From: a virus
Direction: 5' to 3' (one strand)
Virus record (IMG/VR): IMGVR_UViG_3300045988_087130
Coordinates: 25,785 to 89,784 of that record
DNA length: 64,000 nucleotides
Shown here in pieces: positions 4,239 to 62,360 of this stretch. The position numbers were made by a program, and so were the translations under genes. A model generated the notes under the pieces. That model had not been told where the DNA came from and did no database searches. It worked only from the letters and a program-made list of their open reading frames with translations. Each line of letters opens with the position of its first letter. Position 1 is the stretch's first letter.

Positions 4239-5055
4239 TGTTAATTGTTTCAGAAGAGTTCTGTTAGATGTCGGTGGCAAGAAGACAATAATCAGTGTTC
4301 CGCATGAAATGTCCGAAACCGAAGTAAATAAGGTTATGGTTGTTACCAGAGCCTATCTACAGCAGTATGTCTATGTCGAAATGATATTGGCAGAGTGTTT
4401 CATTCAGAAAATCGAAAAGAGTATTCTGAAGAAGAAATGCGTTAGGTTTGAAGTTAAGAAGAAGTGGGTGGACTGCAAGAAGAACCTTCGCAAGGTGGTT
4501 AAGTATTATGACGCTTATGTTCCTAATGCAGATTTCAATAACGAATTCGCAATGACGTTTTATGACAAGATTAGTGGAGACTTGTATAAGTTGCGAGATA
4601 AGATTGCGGTGAGGTTACAGAACTTAGGAATTGGTGAAAAATCGGGAGTCTATGCGAATGCAATCATCCTTTATAATCTCACCAACCTTTGTCTGGGAAC
4701 TTATGAGAATATCATCCGTAAGCTGTTTGAAGAATTGCACGTTAACTTAATGCAAGCGTTCAAGGATTTTGCCCCAATACTTGCTTTTGAGAACTCCTAT
4801 GACTTCATGGCGTTAGTGATGGATAAGGATTTCGAGAGACTGGCAGACCATTTGATGACCAAAGAAATTCTTTCTTATTTCGACAAGGTGAGAAAAGGTG
4901 TCTTTGACGAACAGACATTGAATAAGGCTGCTATCAATGCAACGGAAGACTTGAAAGACGATGAGAAGGATTTGCAGCGGACTTATATAGGAATTAATGA
5001 TTTTATGAAGAGTGACTTTCCTTTGGAGAGAACAACATCAAAGAAAGCAAGCTGA
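4231..5055 (+). CDS. hypothetical protein
   Basis: Track ORF 4207-5055 starts at TTG; first ATG at 4231 overlaps upstream stop by 8 nt. Confidence 0.45.
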   Translation: MSSVNCFRRVLLDVGGKKTIISVPHEMSETEVNKVMVVTRAYLQQYVYVEMILAECFIQKIEKSILKKKCVRFEVKKKWVDCKKNLRKVVKYYDAYVPNADFNNEFAMTFYDKISGDLYKLRDKIAVRLQNLGIGEKSGVYANAIILYNLTNLCLGTYENIIRKLFEELHVNLMQAFKDFAPILAFENSYDFMALVMDKDFERLADHLMTKEILSYFDKVRKGVFDEQTLNKAAINATEDLKDDEKDLQRTYIGINDFMKSDFPLERTTSKKAS

Positions 5056-25778: not shown

Positions 25779-25805
25779 GGTGAGGCACACCCGAACAACT
25801 GCACA
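25779..25805 (+). promoter_or_regulatory. GGTGAGGCACACC..AACAACTGCAC element
   Basis: Exact motif 10 nt after the 25768 stop. Confidence 0.4.
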
Positions 25806-29382: not shown

Positions 29383-29791
29383 CGATTTCAACGCTGCCGA
29401 TGAATTTGTCGTTGAGGCAATGATGCAAGATGGCAAATTCAAGGTTATCGGCAAGGTTATTATTGATAATAATCTTCTGAATGATGATGATTTGGAAACT
29501 ATCTGGGATTATGCCAACTGGGAGACGAACGGCTATGAAAAGATGGTTGTCTCTAACGGAGTGTACAAAGGCTTGAAAGCATTTAGCGATGGGCGTTTGT
29601 TCTATGTAATTACTGATGATGAGGTTGGAGTGGTAAATGACAATATCATGGTACGTAAGCATTATGATGTCAACAATGGCTATTATATTAAGTCATCAAG
29701 GTTGCACAAGGAACAATCCAGGGACTTATGGTGCTTTGGTAGCCGTGAGACTATTGAGAACGAATATAGGTCAAATAAAAAACTGTTTTAA
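29363..29791 (+). CDS. hypothetical protein
   Basis: 142-aa ORF. Confidence 0.4.
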   Translation: MRPIEISDFNAADEFVVEAMMQDGKFKVIGKVIIDNNLLNDDDLETIWDYANWETNGYEKMVVSNGVYKGLKAFSDGRLFYVITDDEVGVVNDNIMVRKHYDVNNGYYIKSSRLHKEQSRDLWCFGSRETIENEYRSNKKLF

Positions 29792-31026
29792 ATTGAGTAG
29801 TATGATTTCATACAAGTACAAGTTATACCGGACGAAGAAGACGAGGCATTTGGATAAGATGCTCCGAGAGGCTTGCTATGTTTGGAATCATGCGCTTGCC
29901 TTGCAGAAGAGATACTATAAGTTGTATCACAAGTATATTCCTAGATTTATGATGCATCATCATTTTGCTAAACGATATAAGCCAATTTTGCTTAACAGCC
30001 ATACCGTTAGGGAAATCTTGGATAGATTAGATGTAGCTTACAAGCGTTTCTTTAAGCATGATGCAAAGCGTCCACCTAAGTTCAAAAAGATGGTTGAATT
30101 TAGTTCGTTCGTTTTCAAAGATAATGGTTATTCCCTTAGTGGAAACGAGTTTGTGATAAACAAGATAAAGAAGTCCTTCAAGTTCTCTCTGAGCCGTCCT
30201 TACGATGGCAAGGTTAAGAGGGTATCAGTCAAGCGCAACAAGCTGGGCGAGTACTTCATTATCCTTTGCTTGGACAAGCAAGCCGAGCCTTACGGAAAGT
30301 CACACGATGGTGCATCCGTGGGCATCGACTTTGGATTGAAGAAGTACATGACTTTGAGCGATGGTCGTGAGATTGATAATCCTCAGTTCCTTAAAGCTGA
30401 CTTGCAGGAGCTTAGGCGCAGGTCTCGCAACCTCTCGAAGTGCAAGAAGGGCAGCAACAACCGCAAGCGCAAGAAGATGGAATTGGAGCGATTGTATCGG
30501 GATATTGTGAACAAACGTTCCGATTTCCAGTGGAAGCTGGCTCACGAACTTTGCAAGCGTTACGACTTGATTTGCTTGGAGGACTTGAACTTGGAGGTAA
30601 TGGCAAAGCGTTGGGGACGCAAGATGTCTGACTTGGCACATAGCGATTTCGTTGTGAAGTTGGAGCACGTAGCGAAGAAGTATGGCGTTAAGGTTCATAA
30701 GATAGACCGCTTCTTCCCATCGAGCCGCCTTTGCACTTGTGGTTATAAGAACGATAAGCTGTCATTGGGTGATAGGATTTGGACTTGCCCTAGTTGTGGT
30801 GCTGTTCATCCTAGAGACCTCTTCGCAGCTGAGAATATACTTCGGCAGGGCATTGCCGAATTGGGGAGTGGTAGTAAGTCACCCAAGCACTCGCAAGGGC
30901 GCAGCCACGTTAACAACCCAACAATCCCTTGTAAATAGCAATGGAGTGTGCCATGTATGCAATAGACTTAGCTCAACGCAAGCAACTTGAAGGATAAAAA
31001 CAAAATACAAAATTAAGAATAAGCAT
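29780..31026 (+). mobile_element. putative IS1341-like element (TnpB only); ends not defined
   Basis: Single tnpB with an 88-bp 3' flank before the next gene; compositional island. Confidence 0.4.
29802..30938 (+). CDS. tnpB: IS200/IS605-family TnpB (OrfB, IS1341-type), no TnpA partner
   Basis: N-terminal YKYKLYRTKKTRHLDKMLREACYVWNHALAL (OrfB_IS605 N-terminus) and C-terminal zinc ribbon CTCGYKNDKLSLGDRIWTCPSCGAVHPRD; GC-richer than its surroundings. Confidence 0.8.
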   Translation: MISYKYKLYRTKKTRHLDKMLREACYVWNHALALQKRYYKLYHKYIPRFMMHHHFAKRYKPILLNSHTVREILDRLDVAYKRFFKHDAKRPPKFKKMVEFSSFVFKDNGYSLSGNEFVINKIKKSFKFSLSRPYDGKVKRVSVKRNKLGEYFIILCLDKQAEPYGKSHDGASVGIDFGLKKYMTLSDGREIDNPQFLKADLQELRRRSRNLSKCKKGSNNRKRKKMELERLYRDIVNKRSDFQWKLAHELCKRYDLICLEDLNLEVMAKRWGRKMSDLAHSDFVVKLEHVAKKYGVKVHKIDRFFPSSRLCTCGYKNDKLSLGDRIWTCPSCGAVHPRDLFAAENILRQGIAELGSGSKSPKHSQGRSHVNNPTIPCK

Positions 31027-37614: not shown

Positions 37615-37839
37615 ATATTTTAATGTTTAGGTTCTTTTTAATTCGACAAGCGTCAGATGTCCGTGAGGATATTTGGCGTTTTTTTTTGTTATATAAGGCG
37701 TTTTATTTTGTGTTGCAATTAATTATTCATTTTTGTGATAAAATAGCCTTAAATCGCTTATAAATACCCTTATTACTCACTTTTAACCAAAAGTGAGATA
37801 CCTGCAAACGCTTTAATGCATTAATTGCTTTTTTCGTAT

Positions 37840-42725: not shown

Positions 42726-42760
42726 GAGGGGGATGGTATTACTGCCGTTCCCTTTTTTTA
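42726..42760 (+). terminator. rho-independent terminator
   Basis: GGGGGATGG-TATTACT-GCCGTTCCC (with wobble pairs) followed by TTTTTTT. Confidence 0.5.
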
Positions 42761-44127: not shown

Positions 44128-44265
44128 TTACTTGTGGTTATTTTTATACATCGGTTTTTATTAACGATTGTTTTTTATGGTAGATAAATGTATAAAAACG
44201 AGCACAAGTTCCCTTATAGATGGACTAAAAAAGATGCTAATTTCACAAAAGACAAAGGTAAGGTA

Positions 44266-45295
44266 ATGTCTTGCTTCTGTTGCGGAGGTGGCAGTTCCTT
44301 TGGTTATAAGTTAGCTGGCTACGATGTTGTAGCCTGTAACGAGATAGACCCAAAGGTTATGAAGATGTACTTGAAGAATCACGATGTCAAGTATTCTTTC
44401 AATTGTGATATTCGTGAGCTGATTGCCAATATCAATATAGGGGGGGCATATTATGAAAGAAGAGTTGCATAATCTGGATATATTGGATGCTAGTTTCCCA
44501 TGTTCGGTATTCAGTATTGCAGGTGACCGCCAAAAGGCTTGGGGAAAGGAAAAAGTATTCCGAGAAGGTCAGAAAGCACAAAGGCTTGACGATTTGGCTT
44601 TTTACTCAATCGCCCTCGCTCAAGAACTACAACCAAAGGTAGTGGTTTTTGAGAATGTCCAAGGTTTGTTGCAAGGTGAAGCTATCGAGTACGTGAAAGA
44701 GATTTACAGGCAGATGGATAATGCCGGATATATCTTGCAGCATTGGTTGCTTAATGCACGTAATATGGGTGTTCCTCAGAATCGACCTAGGGTGTTCTTT
44801 CTAGGATTACGCAAAGACCTTTGCAAGCCGTTTATGGTTCAGAAGGATTTGTTCGAGCGAGTGCCTAAGATAGATATGGACTTCAACGAGAAAGAAATTG
44901 TCTTGGATGAGTTTTCGGACTATAGTGGAAGACAGATTCCAAAAGGAGTGATGAAGTATTGGGAGCATAGAAACGAGAAAGACAATTCTATCGGTGATAT
45001 TGTCAAACGGATGGATAATCGTCTTTCTATGTTCAATAATATGTTTCTTAAAAAGGATAAAGTATGCAATACTATATCAGCAATGGAAGATAGGCTTGTG
45101 TATTTTGATAATCCAAGTTATATTTCAGCGCATGATACGATTTTAGCATCAACATTCCCGATGGATTATGACTTTAATGGCATGAAACCTTGGTTTGCTT
45201 GCGGAATGTGTGTTCCTCCAGTTATGATGGCTAATGTAGCTACGAGAATCTGGGATTGTTGGTTGTCAAAGATTAAAAAGGAGGAATGCGCATGA
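44266..45295 (+). CDS. DNA (cytosine-5)-methyltransferase interrupted by a frameshift at a G7 tract
   Basis: Motif I FCCGGGSS in ORF 44188-44472; motifs IV FPCSVFSIAG, VI ENVQGLL, VIII QNRPRVFF in ORF 44453-45295; the frames join if the G run 44440-44446 has 6 or 9 G. Confidence 0.7.
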
Positions 45296-46029
45296 TAACA
45301 GCAAGTATGAATTCGGGTGAGATGCGTAGGGTACGAAACTTAGATGAAGCTAGAATCTATGAGTTTCAGATGCGAAAAGCTAATGAGCTTAAACGTGAAA
45401 TGAGAAAGCAGAGTGTAAGACAGATAACCAAGACATACGAATTGGTTACACGGAATGCCGATTATTTCATCGTTGTAGGTGTAAAGCATGGAGGTGTCTT
45501 TGTCTCAGGTGTATTCATTTATCTGAAGGAAACTAACGAGTATATTCCTATGAGCAGAAATGAGGGGTATAGCGAGGATTGTTTTGCTATGAGCGTTCAT
45601 TTTCTGAAGAGATATGCAGAAAGGTATTTGAAAAAGGATTTGCCGATAGCAAAGATATTACAAAAGATATATACATCGTTTACAGGTGCGGTTCAGCTTT
45701 ATAGTGACGACAAGACAAAAAGGGTGGTGTTTGCTATTCCGGAAGGGCTTATACTCACAGAATACGAGCAAGAAAAGCGTATCATCCACTACAAAACCTT
45801 TGTAAGCATGGATATGCTAAAGAAGACACAAATGCAAAGTTACGAGAAGATTAGTGCATTTCTAATGGAATCATGTCAGCAAATAGCTATGGCAAGAGAA
45901 GCAGGAAATGACGAAAAGCTGGGCGTTGTGTACAGAAGGTTTTATGATGATATTGATTTGATAGATACAAAGGAGGCGCAAGCCATATATTCAAGTTTCT
46001 TCGAAAAAGGAGGTAACAATGAAAGATAA
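45286..46029 (+). CDS. hypothetical protein overlapping the C5-MTase stop (candidate restriction partner, unproven)
   Basis: 247-aa ORF starting 10 nt inside the MTase gene end; no recognisable motif. Confidence 0.4.
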   Translation: MRMITASMNSGEMRRVRNLDEARIYEFQMRKANELKREMRKQSVRQITKTYELVTRNADYFIVVGVKHGGVFVSGVFIYLKETNEYIPMSRNEGYSEDCFAMSVHFLKRYAERYLKKDLPIAKILQKIYTSFTGAVQLYSDDKTKRVVFAIPEGLILTEYEQEKRIIHYKTFVSMDMLKKTQMQSYEKISAFLMESCQQIAMAREAGNDEKLGVVYRRFYDDIDLIDTKEAQAIYSSFFEKGGNNER

Positions 46030-46522
46030 ATGTATAACAAGGTTTCTAGGTGATATTAAGCCTATAGAGAATTACGAAAGGTATTATGTTAGCAAGCTGG
46101 GACATGTCTTTACTATTGGGAGAACGTCTCAATTAAAGGAAATCGCACCTTGCAAGACACCAAAAGGTTATTTGAAGGTATGGCTTTACAAGAACGGAAA
46201 GCGAAAGATGTTCTATGTTCATCGTTTGGTAGCGCAGGCATTCTTGGAGAATCCAGATGCGTTGCCGATGGTGAATCATAAGGATTTCGACAAGACGAAT
46301 AACGATGTAGATAACTTGGAGTATTGTACCGCAAGATACAATGTGATTTATTCTGCTATAGCAAAGAAAACCTCTTCCGAATACTTGGGTGTGACTTGGA
46401 ATAAGAGTGTAAGAAAATGGCAAGCTCAGTACCAGGTAGGTAAGAAGAAAACTTATATCGGATGCTTTGGTACGCAAGAAGAGGCTCACGAAGCTTATGT
46501 TAACGCTATAAAAGAGATTTGA
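46019..46522 (+). CDS. HNH homing endonuclease (HNH_3) with AP2 DNA-binding domain
   Basis: VNHKDFDKTNNDVDNLEY (H-x-D...NN...NLE HNH_3 core) and YLGVTWNKSVRKWQAQYQVGKKKTYIGCFGTQEEAHEAY (AP2). Confidence 0.65.
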   Translation: MKDKCITRFLGDIKPIENYERYYVSKLGHVFTIGRTSQLKEIAPCKTPKGYLKVWLYKNGKRKMFYVHRLVAQAFLENPDALPMVNHKDFDKTNNDVDNLEYCTARYNVIYSAIAKKTSSEYLGVTWNKSVRKWQAQYQVGKKKTYIGCFGTQEEAHEAYVNAIKEI

Positions 46523-46523
46523 C

Positions 46524-47237
46524 ATGCTTAAATTTGATAGAATATACAATTCCGACTGTATAGAAGGAATGAAGCAAATAGGGAGTGGGGATGTCAATTT
46601 AATTGTTACTGACCCACCATATTGTATCTCCTATAAGACCGGATGGAGAGCAGACGACCATCGTTTTTCGAAGGAAATACTCAATGACGATAATGAGCAA
46701 TTGATTATTGATTATATGAGCGAATGCTACCGGATATTGAAGGATGATAGTGCCGCTTACGTCTTTTGTTCAGCTAAGACCTTGGACTTTTTTATGCAAC
46801 AAGCTAGGAACGCAGGGTTTACCATTAAGAATGTGCTCATTTGGCGAAAGAACAACCATACGGCTGGAGATTTAGAGGCGCAATATGGGCAATGTTACGA
46901 GCCAATCCTGTACTTGAATAAAGGCAGACGAACCATAAACGGAAAGCGTTTGGAGGACGTATGGGACTTTGATAGAGTTCCATCTGATAAATTGGTACAT
47001 CAGAATGAGAAACCAATTCCCTTGCTTATGCAATGCATCTTGAAATCATCGGACGAAGGAGATTTGGTATTTGATGGTTTTATGGGTTCAGCAAGTACTG
47101 CTCTGGCTTGTATGCGTACAAACAGGAATTTCCTTGGCTTTGAGTTAGACGGGGAATATTTCAAGGTAGCACAAAAAAGAATCAAAGAAGAAATGTTTAA
47201 TCAAAAAGATATGTTTGGATATGCTGGAGATAGATAA
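46524..47237 (+). CDS. beta-class N6-adenine/N4-cytosine DNA methyltransferase
   Basis: N-terminal catalytic TDPPY, C-terminal SAM site FDGFMGSASTALAC. Confidence 0.75.
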   Translation: MLKFDRIYNSDCIEGMKQIGSGDVNLIVTDPPYCISYKTGWRADDHRFSKEILNDDNEQLIIDYMSECYRILKDDSAAYVFCSAKTLDFFMQQARNAGFTIKNVLIWRKNNHTAGDLEAQYGQCYEPILYLNKGRRTINGKRLEDVWDFDRVPSDKLVHQNEKPIPLLMQCILKSSDEGDLVFDGFMGSASTALACMRTNRNFLGFELDGEYFKVAQKRIKEEMFNQKDMFGYAGDR

Positions 47238-60239: not shown

Positions 60240-61442
60240 ATGAATGAGTTTACAAAGGTCTTTGCAAAGACAATAGAAGATGAAGCTATCAAGCAGATAG
60301 AAGTTCTATCCAATAGCGATGCTTACTCTGGTTGTGAAATAAGAATAATGCCAGATTGTCACGCAGGTAAAGGCTGTACTATTGGCACGGTGATAGAGCT
60401 GGACAAAAGAGTAGTTCCTAACACCGTAGGAGTAGATATAGGTTGCGGAATGAAAGTCGTTAGACTTGGTAAAGTTAATATTAATCTACAGAAATTTGAC
60501 GAAGCAGTCAATACGTTGATTCCGTCTGGTTTTAATATCAACGAAGAAGCTTCTGCATACATACATGGATTAGTTGACGGCAATATGTTTGGTAAATTTC
60601 GTTCTTGGGATAGTATTAATGGGATGGATATAGTATATCGTTCTGTTGGTTCTCTTGGCGGTGGCAATCACTTTATTGAGTTAGATGCAAATGAAGAAGG
60701 AGAGAAGTTTCTTGTGATACATACAGGAAGTAGAAACCTTGGTGTTAGGGTATGCAACTATTACCAAAAACTTGCCTACGAGTATTGTCGTAAGAAAATA
60801 GCAGATAAGTCTGAGGTTATTGCCAAGTTGAAAAGCGAAGGAAGAGAAAAGGAAATACAGAGTGCTATAAAGTTGTTAGGTACTAGAGATATTAGCAAGG
60901 AACTTTCTTACTTGGAGGGCGATTTGCTTGATGATTACTTAAATGATATGCGTATAGTTCAGAAGTATGCCGAGCATAATAGAAGAATTATAGCTAACAG
61001 ACTCGTCAATGCTCTAGGTGTGGATATTGACCCAAATTCAGACAAGCATTCTTTTACAACTATTCACAACTATATAGATACAGACAAGGGCATATTGCGA
61101 AAAGGAGCTATCAGTGCAAAGAAAGACGAGATTGTCATTATTCCTATGAATATGCGTGACGGTTCTCTTATCTGTAAAGGTAAAGGAAACAAGGAATGGT
61201 TATGCTCAGCCCCACATGGCGCAGGTAGATTAATGTCTCGTACACAGGCAAAGAAAGAGTTATCTATGGATTCTTACAAGAATGAAATGAATGGTATCTA
61301 TTCCACATCAGTTTGTGAAGAAACCATTGATGAAGCACCTATGGCATACAAACCAACCGAAGAGATTGTTGAGCTAATAAAACCTACGGTTGATGTGATA
61401 GATGTTATTAAACCAATTTACAACTTTAAAGCAAAATTATAA
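60240..61442 (+). CDS. rtcB: RtcB-family RNA ligase (short form)
   Basis: RtcB hallmarks MPDCHAGKG, VGVDIGCGM, GGGNHFIEL, HNYID, SAPHGAGR all present. Confidence 0.75.
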   Translation: MNEFTKVFAKTIEDEAIKQIEVLSNSDAYSGCEIRIMPDCHAGKGCTIGTVIELDKRVVPNTVGVDIGCGMKVVRLGKVNINLQKFDEAVNTLIPSGFNINEEASAYIHGLVDGNMFGKFRSWDSINGMDIVYRSVGSLGGGNHFIELDANEEGEKFLVIHTGSRNLGVRVCNYYQKLAYEYCRKKIADKSEVIAKLKSEGREKEIQSAIKLLGTRDISKELSYLEGDLLDDYLNDMRIVQKYAEHNRRIIANRLVNALGVDIDPNSDKHSFTTIHNYIDTDKGILRKGAISAKKDEIVIIPMNMRDGSLICKGKGNKEWLCSAPHGAGRLMSRTQAKKELSMDSYKNEMNGIYSTSVCEETIDEAPMAYKPTEEIVELIKPTVDVIDVIKPIYNFKAKL

Positions 61443-61645
61443 TGAGCAAGGAAACATTTGACTTCTCGGAGGCTCTGAGAAGAATGAAGGAAGGGAAGAA
61501 AGTGAGAAGGGTAATTTGGGAAGAATGTGGAGCTTATATCCATATTGTCTCTGAGACTATTGTGGCTGTATGCGATGGGCAATTCTTTCCTTGTGTTTTC
61601 AAAGATTCTGAGGATATACTTGCAACAGACTGGGAGGAGGTGTAA
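61442..61645 (+). CDS. hypothetical protein
   Basis: 67-aa ORF. Confidence 0.35.
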   Translation: MSKETFDFSEALRRMKEGKKVRRVIWEECGAYIHIVSETIVAVCDGQFFPCVFKDSEDILATDWEEV

Positions 61646-61647
61646 GG

Positions 61648-61713
61648 ATGAAAAAGAAAGTATTGACCCTCACCGTCAGCAAGCAGTGGTTCGACATGAT
61701 AGTAGTATTATGA
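61648..61713 (+). pseudogene. 21-codon 5' fragment duplicating the start of ASCH-like gene 62362
   Basis: MKKKVLTLTVSKQWFDMIVVL* against MKKILTLTVNKEWFSRILLGEK... at 62362; the HNH gene lies between them. Confidence 0.4.
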
Positions 61714-62360
61714 TAAAAGGAACAGAAGTAAATATCATACAAGGTGAAATTTGGAAGCCCATAAAAGGTTACGAAGGTTTATATTTTATTAGTAATCTTA
61801 GCAGGGTGAAAAGGATTACACCCAGAGGTAAGTTTAAGGAACGTTTATTGTACAAGAGACAAAATGATGCAGGTTATTGGTGCGTGTCACTTTGTAAGAA
61901 CGGAAAAGCAAAATGTAAGCGTGTACATAGATTGGTTGCTGAAGCGTTTATTCCTAATCCCGAGAATAAAACACAAGTTGGGCATAAAGACGAGACTCGG
62001 ACTAATGATTCTATCGAAAACTTAGAATGGGTAACTCCGAAAGAAAATTGCAATATGCCGTTACATAAACTGCGTATTGCTAACTCACAAACTGGGAAAA
62101 AGGATAGTTTGGAAACTAAACTAAAGAAACGCAATGCACAATTGGGAGAAAAAAGTCATTTATACGGCAAGAGGGGTAAAGATAATAGGTTTTCTAAACC
62201 CATATTGCAATACAATAAAAATGGCGAACTAATGAAGGAATACGAAAATGCTGAAGAAGCGTATAGAATTACGGGAATAGCAAGTTCGCATATCAGAGAA
62301 TGTTGCAACGGTTTAAGAAAAACCTCTGGTGGATATTGTTGGAAATTTAAAAATAAATAA
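61710..62360 (+). CDS. HNH homing endonuclease (NUMOD4 + HNH_3)
   Basis: IKGYEGLYFISNLSRVKRI (NUMOD4) and VGHKDETRTNDSIENLEWVTPKEN (HNH_3); the long track ORF 61527 begins upstream, but ATG 61710 follows the fragment stop. Confidence 0.65.
   Translation: MIKGTEVNIIQGEIWKPIKGYEGLYFISNLSRVKRITPRGKFKERLLYKRQNDAGYWCVSLCKNGKAKCKRVHRLVAEAFIPNPENKTQVGHKDETRTNDSIENLEWVTPKENCNMPLHKLRIANSQTGKKDSLETKLKKRNAQLGEKSHLYGKRGKDNRFSKPILQYNKNGELMKEYENAEEAYRITGIASSHIRECCNGLRKTSGGYCWKFKNK

Follow-up and report, generated by a model that had tools for sequence, protein, structure and literature searches.

A gene for a C5 cytosine DNA methyltransferase (methylase) is broken at a run of seven G's in a stretch of viral DNA of 64,000 nucleotides (IMG/VR record IMGVR_UViG_3300045988_087130, positions 25,785 to 89,784; here, the window). 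The run lies between motif III (DIRE) and motif IV (FPC) of the enzyme, with the junction AATATCAATATA GGGGGGG CATATTATGAAAG, and divides the gene into an N-terminal open reading frame (ORF A), which carries motif I (FCCGGGSS), and a C-terminal one in the +1 frame (ORF B), which carries motifs IV (FPC), VI (ENV), VIII (QNRPR), and X (GMCVPP) (Table 1). Codon by codon, the window reads AAT ATC AAT ATA GGG GGG G CAT ATT ATG AAA across the tract. When one G is deleted, a single ORF of 368 amino acids results, which matches PF00145 (E = 2.5e-40) over profile positions 2 to 322 of 324, contains motifs I, IV, VI, VIII, and X in the canonical order, and has 8yf3_A as its best relative in the PDB (7.6e-34); the tract takes up codons 85 to 87 of the 368. 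The initial annotation had described this split and had proposed that a tract of G6 or G9 would fuse the two frames, and the coordinates, motifs, and PF00145 match confirm both points. It had left two explanations side by side, a slipped-strand switch and an indel error. We favor the first, at a probability of about 0.65: the G run would be a conserved, slippage-prone contingency locus within an orphan phage C5 methylase, in the loop that joins motifs III and IV, and the window would carry an out-of-frame (OFF, +1) allele derived from an in-frame (ON) ATA+G6 one.

Table 1. Features of the methylase locus and of its surroundings in the window
Feature	Coordinates	Strand	Remarks
C5 cytosine DNA methyltransferase, whole gene	44188..45295	+	+1 frameshift, the OFF allele
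G7 homopolymer, hypermutable tract	44440..44446	+	Between motifs III and IV; encodes Gly-Gly (GGG GGG)
ORF A, N-terminal methylase fragment	44188..44472	+	Motifs I-III, 94 amino acids; TAA end reached after the frameshift; PHROG 116 DNA methyltransferase, 5.4e-17
ORF B, C-terminal methylase fragment	44453..45295	+	Motifs IV-X, 280 amino acids, +1 frame; Met start just past the tract
Motif I	44275-44298		Inside ORF A
Motif IV	44495		Inside ORF B
Motif VI	44651		Inside ORF B
Motif VIII	44777		Inside ORF B
Motif X	45203		Inside ORF B
Codons from the tract to the post-tract Met	44447-44455
A6 run inside the methylase gene	44227..44232	+	Minor second frameshift site
Non-coding T6 run	44171..44176	+	12 nt upstream of the methylase ATG; T5-T9 among relatives
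Downstream ORF	45286-46029 (feature 45292..46029)	+	ATG overlaps the methylase stop (ATGA)
HNH/AP2/NUMOD homing-type endonuclease	46019-46522		Overlaps its neighbors by a few bases; interleaved with the methylase cluster
First of four N6/N4 methylase genes	46524..47237	+	"SGD" loop at 46581-46607, AGT GGG GAT GTC
RtcB	60240-61442
HNH/AP2/NUMOD homing-type endonuclease	61527-62360		Beside RtcB
TnpB / IS605 OrfB-type gene	29637-30938		OrfB_IS605 and Cas12f1-like TNB domains

The tract is the sole run of six or more G's or C's within the 64 kb. The two overlapping G/C hexamer matches that it contains compare with 8.8 ± 3.4 in dinucleotide shuffles; a single G7 is no more than base composition predicts, and G/C runs of six or more are depleted in the window. 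What does go beyond chance is its constant place: all of the tract-bearing relatives that we examined have the run at the same codons.

Because the codon before the tract is ATA in the window's lineage, ATA+G6 is the ON form there, and G7 and G8 are out of frame. A first comparison, with MT835576 (93.7% identity; the only relative in the phage GenBank collection, and unannotated), in which the methylase is intact and the G7 is present as ATG GGG GGG CAT, had pointed to an extra A placed before an in-frame G7. This idea was abandoned when wider sampling revealed two backgrounds, ATG+G6 and ATA+G6. The window belongs to the ATA clade, so its frameshift is a gain of a G inside the tract and not an added A.

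Tract length and sequence among related phages

Related sites were collected by an anchored DNA pattern search (AATATCAATAT-N(4-14)-CRTATTATGAA), which gave an unbiased sample of alleles from two collections, 119 IMG/VR viral contigs and 50 true sites in metagenome contigs, some contigs being present in both. Such a search was required because a list of best matches favors full-length ones and thereby hides OFF alleles: among the best 80 IMG/VR relatives, 77 show an uninterrupted 1104-nt match and 79 an in-frame tract. In the anchored sample, 84 of the 119 IMG/VR contigs are in frame (81 with G7, 2 with A+G6, and 1 with GGGGAGG), 23 are in the +1 state (22 with G8 and 1 with A+G7), 8 are in the -1 state (all G6), and 4 are in the +2 state (3 with G9 and 1 with A+G8). 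The out-of-frame share is 29% in this collection and 28% among the 50 metagenome sites, where SPAdes contigs at 41x, 64x, 78x, and 194x coverage are found among the out-of-frame alleles. Pooling of 170 sites gives 120 in frame, 34 at +1, 9 at -1, and 7 at +2, with 50/170 (about 29%) out of frame. The related IMG/VR contigs come in two size classes, about 64-70 kb and about 108-134 kb; those of the larger class may be concatemers or mis-joined circular genomes.

The window's own clade holds AG6, AG7, and AG8, and its ON allele, ATA+G6, is present in five contigs (L167, L196, L258, L263, and L296). The identical ATA+G7 allele was found in at least seven other contigs (L200, L277, L299, L300, L302, L303, and L304), most of them from different samples, studies, and assemblers. 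Likewise, the exact 280-amino-acid product of ORF B occurs on 14 contigs from independent samples; six of these, again from different samples, studies, and assemblers, were retrieved, and five of the six have ATA+G7 with 0 to 6 mismatches in 843 nt, while the sixth (L301) has ATA+G8 with zero mismatches and an identical ORF B. The ATA+G7 OFF allele circulates in several human gut samples. In protein database clusters, the full-length methylase has 2651 members, and C-terminal fragments that begin at or just past the tract form clusters of 362 and 97 members. With more than 170 contigs in public human gut metagenomes and a cluster of this size, the locus is abundant enough for the switching hypothesis to be tested from existing reads.

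To follow the recurrence of length changes, a neighbor-joining tree was built from the 1.2 kb that flank the tract, the tract itself being left out, and the ON/OFF state was traced by Fitch parsimony. The 29 OFF tips require 26 ON/OFF changes, compared with a mean of 25.3 (range, 20 to 29) for shuffled labels; this number is an upper estimate, because near-identical sequences are poorly separated in the tree. Two trios of contigs with zero substitutions in the 1.2-kb flanks nevertheless carry three tract lengths each, G6, G7, and G8 in one (L142, L173, and L158) and G7, G8, and G9 in the other (L101, L150, and L085). Tract state does not track phylogeny, and many independent events are needed to explain it.

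The gene around the tract is otherwise maintained. When the tract alone is corrected, 27 of the 29 OFF alleles are intact 368-amino-acid ORFs, and four OFF alleles of divergent lineages fuse to intact enzymes of 352 to 365 amino acids. Nucleotide diversity at codon positions 1, 2, and 3 is 0.036, 0.019, and 0.110, respectively, which indicates that the methylase protein is under purifying selection. The A6 run near the start of the gene is extended to A7 in 5 of 187 cases; relatives of this type include L077, L081, L100, and L132, the last two with a stop at codon 17. In two further methylase relatives (P0013 and P0026), the frame enters unrelated C-terminal sequence after about residue 230 to 250, and the P0026 tail is HNH-like ("DHLVPK...CRSCNLRK"), which suggests homing-endonuclease insertions inside the methylase gene.

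The non-coding T run upstream of the methylase was considered as a second switch. Its lengths are T6 in 164 cases, T7 in 16, T8 in 7, and T9 in 4, some contigs being counted twice, and L277 has T5. The T8 and T9 alleles mostly belong to one sub-clade, which is often G8 (OFF); the association of the T run with the OFF state (Fisher p = 0.009) is mostly due to that sub-clade, and the candidate was rejected.

Beyond the close relatives, the tract is retained in divergent lineages. Homologues at 56-86% protein identity, some of them in other gene neighborhoods, have a poly-G run at the same spot, mostly G7 or G8, and the extra G is supplied by varied neighboring codons, either ATG, TCG, CTG, ACG, or GCG before the two glycine codons or GCA or GGT after them. 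The tract is thus written TCG GGG GGG CAA in L211, ATG GGG GGG CAA in L212, CTG GGG GGG CAG in L217, AAT GGG GGG GCA in L214, AGT GGG GGG GCA in L216 (56% identity), and CTT GGG GGG GGT in L210. Among OFF alleles of such lineages, the G run follows ACG in L201 (G8), GCG in L205 (G8), C in L206 (G7; AAT CGG GGG GGC as read), and GC in L208 (G6; GCG GGG GGC as read). In seven lineages, the glycine codons of the tract are GGG in 14 of 14 cases, compared with 15 of 147 (10%) for the other glycine codons of the same genes. In the window as a whole, GGG makes up 9% of glycine codons, and the only one of 44 Gly-Gly dipeptides that is written GGGGGG is the tract itself; the three consecutive glycines of motif I are always encoded by mixed codons. 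Homologues without the Gly-Gly loop (P0010 and the 53-56% group) have no tract. Among close relatives, 15 of 32 4-fold degenerate sites are invariant, which leaves the two such sites of the tract uninformative, so the codon argument rests on the divergent lineages. In these comparisons, the tract is conserved at the nucleotide level beyond what the protein needs.

Probable phase switching and its alternatives

Four features expected of a simple sequence repeat contingency locus are found together here: an in-frame homopolymer, length differences between close relatives, recurrence of these differences, and a gene that stays intact around a conserved tract. At the level of comparative genomics, the switch proposed in the initial annotation is upheld by lengths from G6 to G9 on many haplotypes, by the out-of-frame share of about 29%, and by conservation of the tract as DNA. 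In such a switch, a single G gained or lost in replication would take the gene from ON (in frame) to one of its truncated OFF states or back, and the length changes would arise by polymerase slippage and be reversible. OFF phages would be expected to do without the corresponding 5-methylcytosine (m5C) mark. By analogy with the agt gene of phage T2 (see below), ON phages may be protected from restriction enzymes that the m5C mark blocks, and OFF phages may escape methylation-dependent (Type IV-like) defenses; a mixture of both could serve as bet-hedging between hosts with opposite defenses.

Several observations weigh against a contingency locus. (i) Several samples share exactly the OFF allele of the window, which could mark a lineage that has lost the gene; if switching takes place, it is too slow to randomize the consensus in each host. 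(ii) At least one OFF sub-clade exists, with T9+G8 (L098, L136, L180, and L190). (iii) Among tracts known to phase-vary, G7 ranks with the shortest. (iv) The variability of the tract is about that of non-coding homopolymers of like length, and near-neutral loss of a dispensable gene would give the same. (v) The allele lengths compared are those of contig consensus sequences, which bears on heterogeneity within populations and on reversibility.

The main rival explanation is non-adaptive: the Gly-Gly codons would be a mutation-prone hotspot in an accessory methylase that is cheaply lost, and OFF alleles would be young, effectively irreversible pseudogenes that drift up after transmission bottlenecks. 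It would account for the stability of the window's allele, for the OFF sub-clade, and for a divergent lineage (L201-L204) that is found only as G8, and it agrees with the similarity between the 29% of out-of-frame tracts and the 14-45% of contigs in which non-coding T6/T7 runs vary. In addition, about 5 of 94 contigs have the gene disrupted in some other way, and the equivalent tract is interrupted in the adjoining N6/N4 methylase of most close relatives. However, a mere liability would be erased by synonymous GGA, GGT, or GGC codons, whereas 14 of 14 tract codons are GGG in lineages down to 56% identity, and varied flanking codons maintain at least seven G's. The scarcity of further decay in OFF alleles, the purifying selection on the protein, and the independent poly-G tracts in unrelated methylase genes of the same phages (see below) also speak against this explanation. 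On balance, we regard the non-adaptive explanation as unlikely, if clearly the most serious of the alternatives.

Much less probable is a functional split enzyme, in which the N-terminal fragment and a C-terminal fragment re-initiated at ATG 44453 would associate, so that the frameshift would be silent or would only lower activity. Split C5 methylases, both natural (M.AquI) and engineered, can be active. A Met stands within three to four codons past the tract in most tract-bearing lineages (P0003-P0009, P0014, P0032, and L206; Val, encoded by GTG, in L208), and homologues that lack the tract lack this Met as well (P0010 has Leu). In -1 alleles, the TGA that ends the upstream frame overlaps the ATG or GTG (ATGA/GTGA), and in +1 alleles 20 nt are common to the two ORFs. 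Translation may re-initiate at the post-tract Met, by which the C-terminal fragment, or coupled genes further down, would still be made when the gene is OFF. Against a working split enzyme, the break is inside the Rossmann-type S-adenosylmethionine (AdoMet)-binding domain, between motifs III and IV, and not at the permissive site between motifs VIII and IX. Moreover, a conserved split of the M.AquI type was not found among the related sites, 71% of which encode a single polypeptide, and the split coincides with a length-variable tract. Shine-Dalgarno-like signals are not generally used in the genome, either (15 of 92 ORFs compared with a 12% background), and the G run was rejected on these counts as a Shine-Dalgarno sequence for the internal ATG.

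Sequencing or assembly error, with an intact gene in the true phage genome, was the other option of the initial annotation. Homopolymers are the commonest sites of indel errors, and a tract state that is uncorrelated with phylogeny is what random error would give. Nevertheless, such an error is effectively excluded for the window by the comparisons at hand. The same ATA+G7 allele recurs in the contigs listed above, OFF lengths are found in contigs of 41-194x coverage, and contig names point to short-read SPAdes or MEGAHIT assemblies, which are less homopolymer-prone than long-read ones. Over about 13 kb compared with its closest relatives, the tract is the window's sole uncompensated indel inside a gene, and the other length differences are in non-coding T runs. 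Across one set of contigs, coding A6/T6 runs vary in only 0-3%, whereas non-coding T6/T7 runs vary in 14-45%; because read or assembly error is blind to coding status, steady coding runs beside variable non-coding ones fit real mutation filtered by selection. The OFF state is also common to whole lineages, with L201-L204 being G8 in four samples besides the T9+G8 sub-clade. Two non-coding runs elsewhere in the window vary among close relatives, a T7 at 42753-42759 (T6-T8) and a T9 at 37679-37687 (T7-T9).

Least credible is programmed recoding, by which +1 ribosomal frameshifting or RNA polymerase slippage would restore the full-length enzyme from G7. In its favor, RNA polymerase can slip on homopolymers, and neither frame is closed near the tract. 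Against it, the orthologues share no conserved frameshift configuration, most of them being in frame without recoding, and the OFF alleles come in three out-of-frame lengths (+1, -1, and +2), beyond any single recoding event. Moreover, for transcriptional slippage to be efficient in bacteria, an A/T run of at least about 9 is required, and GGG GGG G is not known as a site of +1 shifting.

Genomic context and neighboring methylases

The window derives from a tailed phage. It encodes a 2042-amino-acid tape measure protein and an E-type major capsid protein; antirepressors, an RtcB ligase, and a TnpB insertion are also present. In addition to the C5 methylase, the window has four genes for N6/N4 methylases, with HNH/AP2 homing-type endonuclease genes set among them. 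The ORF directly downstream of the C5 methylase had been raised as a possible cognate restriction enzyme, an idea that gains no support: the ORF has no Pfam, PHROG, or PADLOC match and no nuclease-like fold, the methylases of L205, L208, L210, L211, and L216 have no such ORF next to them, and the gene after it encodes an HNH/AP2 homing-type endonuclease. With no linked cognate restriction endonuclease evident beside the methylase, membership in a Type II restriction-modification system is not indicated. The comparison with phasevarions, which had also been drawn, does not fit well, as the gene is in a tailed-phage genome and has a C5 Type II-like architecture with no adjacent restriction subunit.

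Relatives of the phage are abundant in human gut metagenomes, and the sole match in reference genomes, a contig of a metagenome-assembled genome binned with Segatella (Prevotella) copri, is a weak lead to the host. The limited use of Shine-Dalgarno-like signals fits a Bacteroidota host, and the host is probably a member of Prevotella/Segatella.

Poly-G tracts are not confined to the C5 gene. Of the G/C runs of seven or more that 1.1 Mb of related loci contain, nearly all fall in methylase genes. In the N6/N4 methylase homologous to the first one of the window, the sequence "...IESGGV..DPPY" is written AGT GGG GGG GTG in three close relatives, and these three uninterrupted alleles have three different lengths: G6 (L082, OFF), G7 (L116, ON), and G8 (L102, OFF). 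In contrast to them, all 81 interrupted alleles (81/81), including the AGT GGG GAT GTC of the window, share one length. Distant relatives have G7-G9 at the same N6/N4 loop, either ON (L201, L205, and L214) or OFF (L212 and, at position 4406, L208). Tracts also exist in other N6/N4 loops, before FxGxG (ON in L208 and OFF in L217) and before HPTQKP (OFF in L097). Relatives with N6/N4 tracts are L082, L102, L116, L201-L205, L208, L212-L214, L217, and L097.

We propose tentatively, at somewhat less than even odds, that this phage group holds independent poly-G switches in the C5 and at least two N6/N4 methylases, each in a loop before a catalytic or AdoMet motif. Progeny would then differ in their combinations of methylation marks, a virion-level epigenetic bet-hedging between classical restriction enzymes and methylation-dependent defenses in strain-diverse hosts.

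Comparison with known systems

Orphan methylases of phages are usually seen as a constant means of anti-restriction. Should conserved homopolymers switch them, gut phage populations would be epigenetically heterogeneous by design, which would bear on host-range prediction, on the stability of therapeutic phages, and on how to read the "broken" methylases of viromes, commonly set aside as pseudogenes or errors. In the literature that we searched, phage methylases switched by repeats were not reported. The nearest described genome layout is that of the "Quimbyviridae" (Benler et al. 2021, PMC8008677), phages of about 65-75 kb with adenine and cytosine methylases beside RtcB, many antirepressors, and Prevotella among the predicted hosts; the methylases were read as anti-restriction genes there, and homopolymer switching was not described. 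The window resembles these phages in its arrangement of methylases, RtcB, and antirepressors, a likeness of layout by which we do not claim family membership.

Among bacteria, phase-variable methyltransferases include the Type III mod genes of phasevarions and the poly-G-containing Type IIG gene cj0031 of Campylobacter jejuni (PMC4889913). The window shares with them an in-frame repeat that is conserved yet length-variable between isolates, and methylation would likewise be turned ON and OFF by slippage. However, the bacterial genes are chromosomal restriction-modification genes, mostly for N6-adenine methylation, and act via host gene regulation or defense, whereas the window's gene is a phage orphan C5 methylase with no restriction partner evident and a short tract (G6-G9), and it is the phage DNA itself that would be likely to benefit.

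Switching by homopolymers in phages has its own precedents. Hypermutable poly-G tracts of Campylobacter phages are reportedly the subject of Sorensen et al. (Cell Rep 2021), the title of which speaks of phenotypic diversity and evasion of bacterial resistance, and they are said to be in receptor-binding genes and to affect host recognition. As in the window, the tracts are phage-borne and generate ON/OFF diversity in populations, but DNA modification is not what they control.

The closest functional precedent is the agt (alpha-glucosyltransferase) gene of phage T2, in which an A9 run is a contingency locus (Gomez, Barrick and Waters, bioRxiv 2025, PMC12633550). Its reversible frameshift removes the DNA modification, by which the phage evades TgvAB and becomes exposed to McrA/BC (PMC12633550). 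Both cases place a homopolymer in a phage DNA-modification gene, and we propose the same trade-off here. They differ in that T2 is a virulent coliphage in which switching of a glucosyltransferase through A9 was experimentally demonstrated, whereas the run in the window consists of G's, the gene is that of an m5C methylase, the gut phage is uncultured, and the evidence comes from comparative genomics, with a tract that is conserved across deep lineages and repeated in several methylases. If our reading is correct, the contingency principle established for T2 agt would extend from a laboratory coliphage to natural, widespread gut phages.

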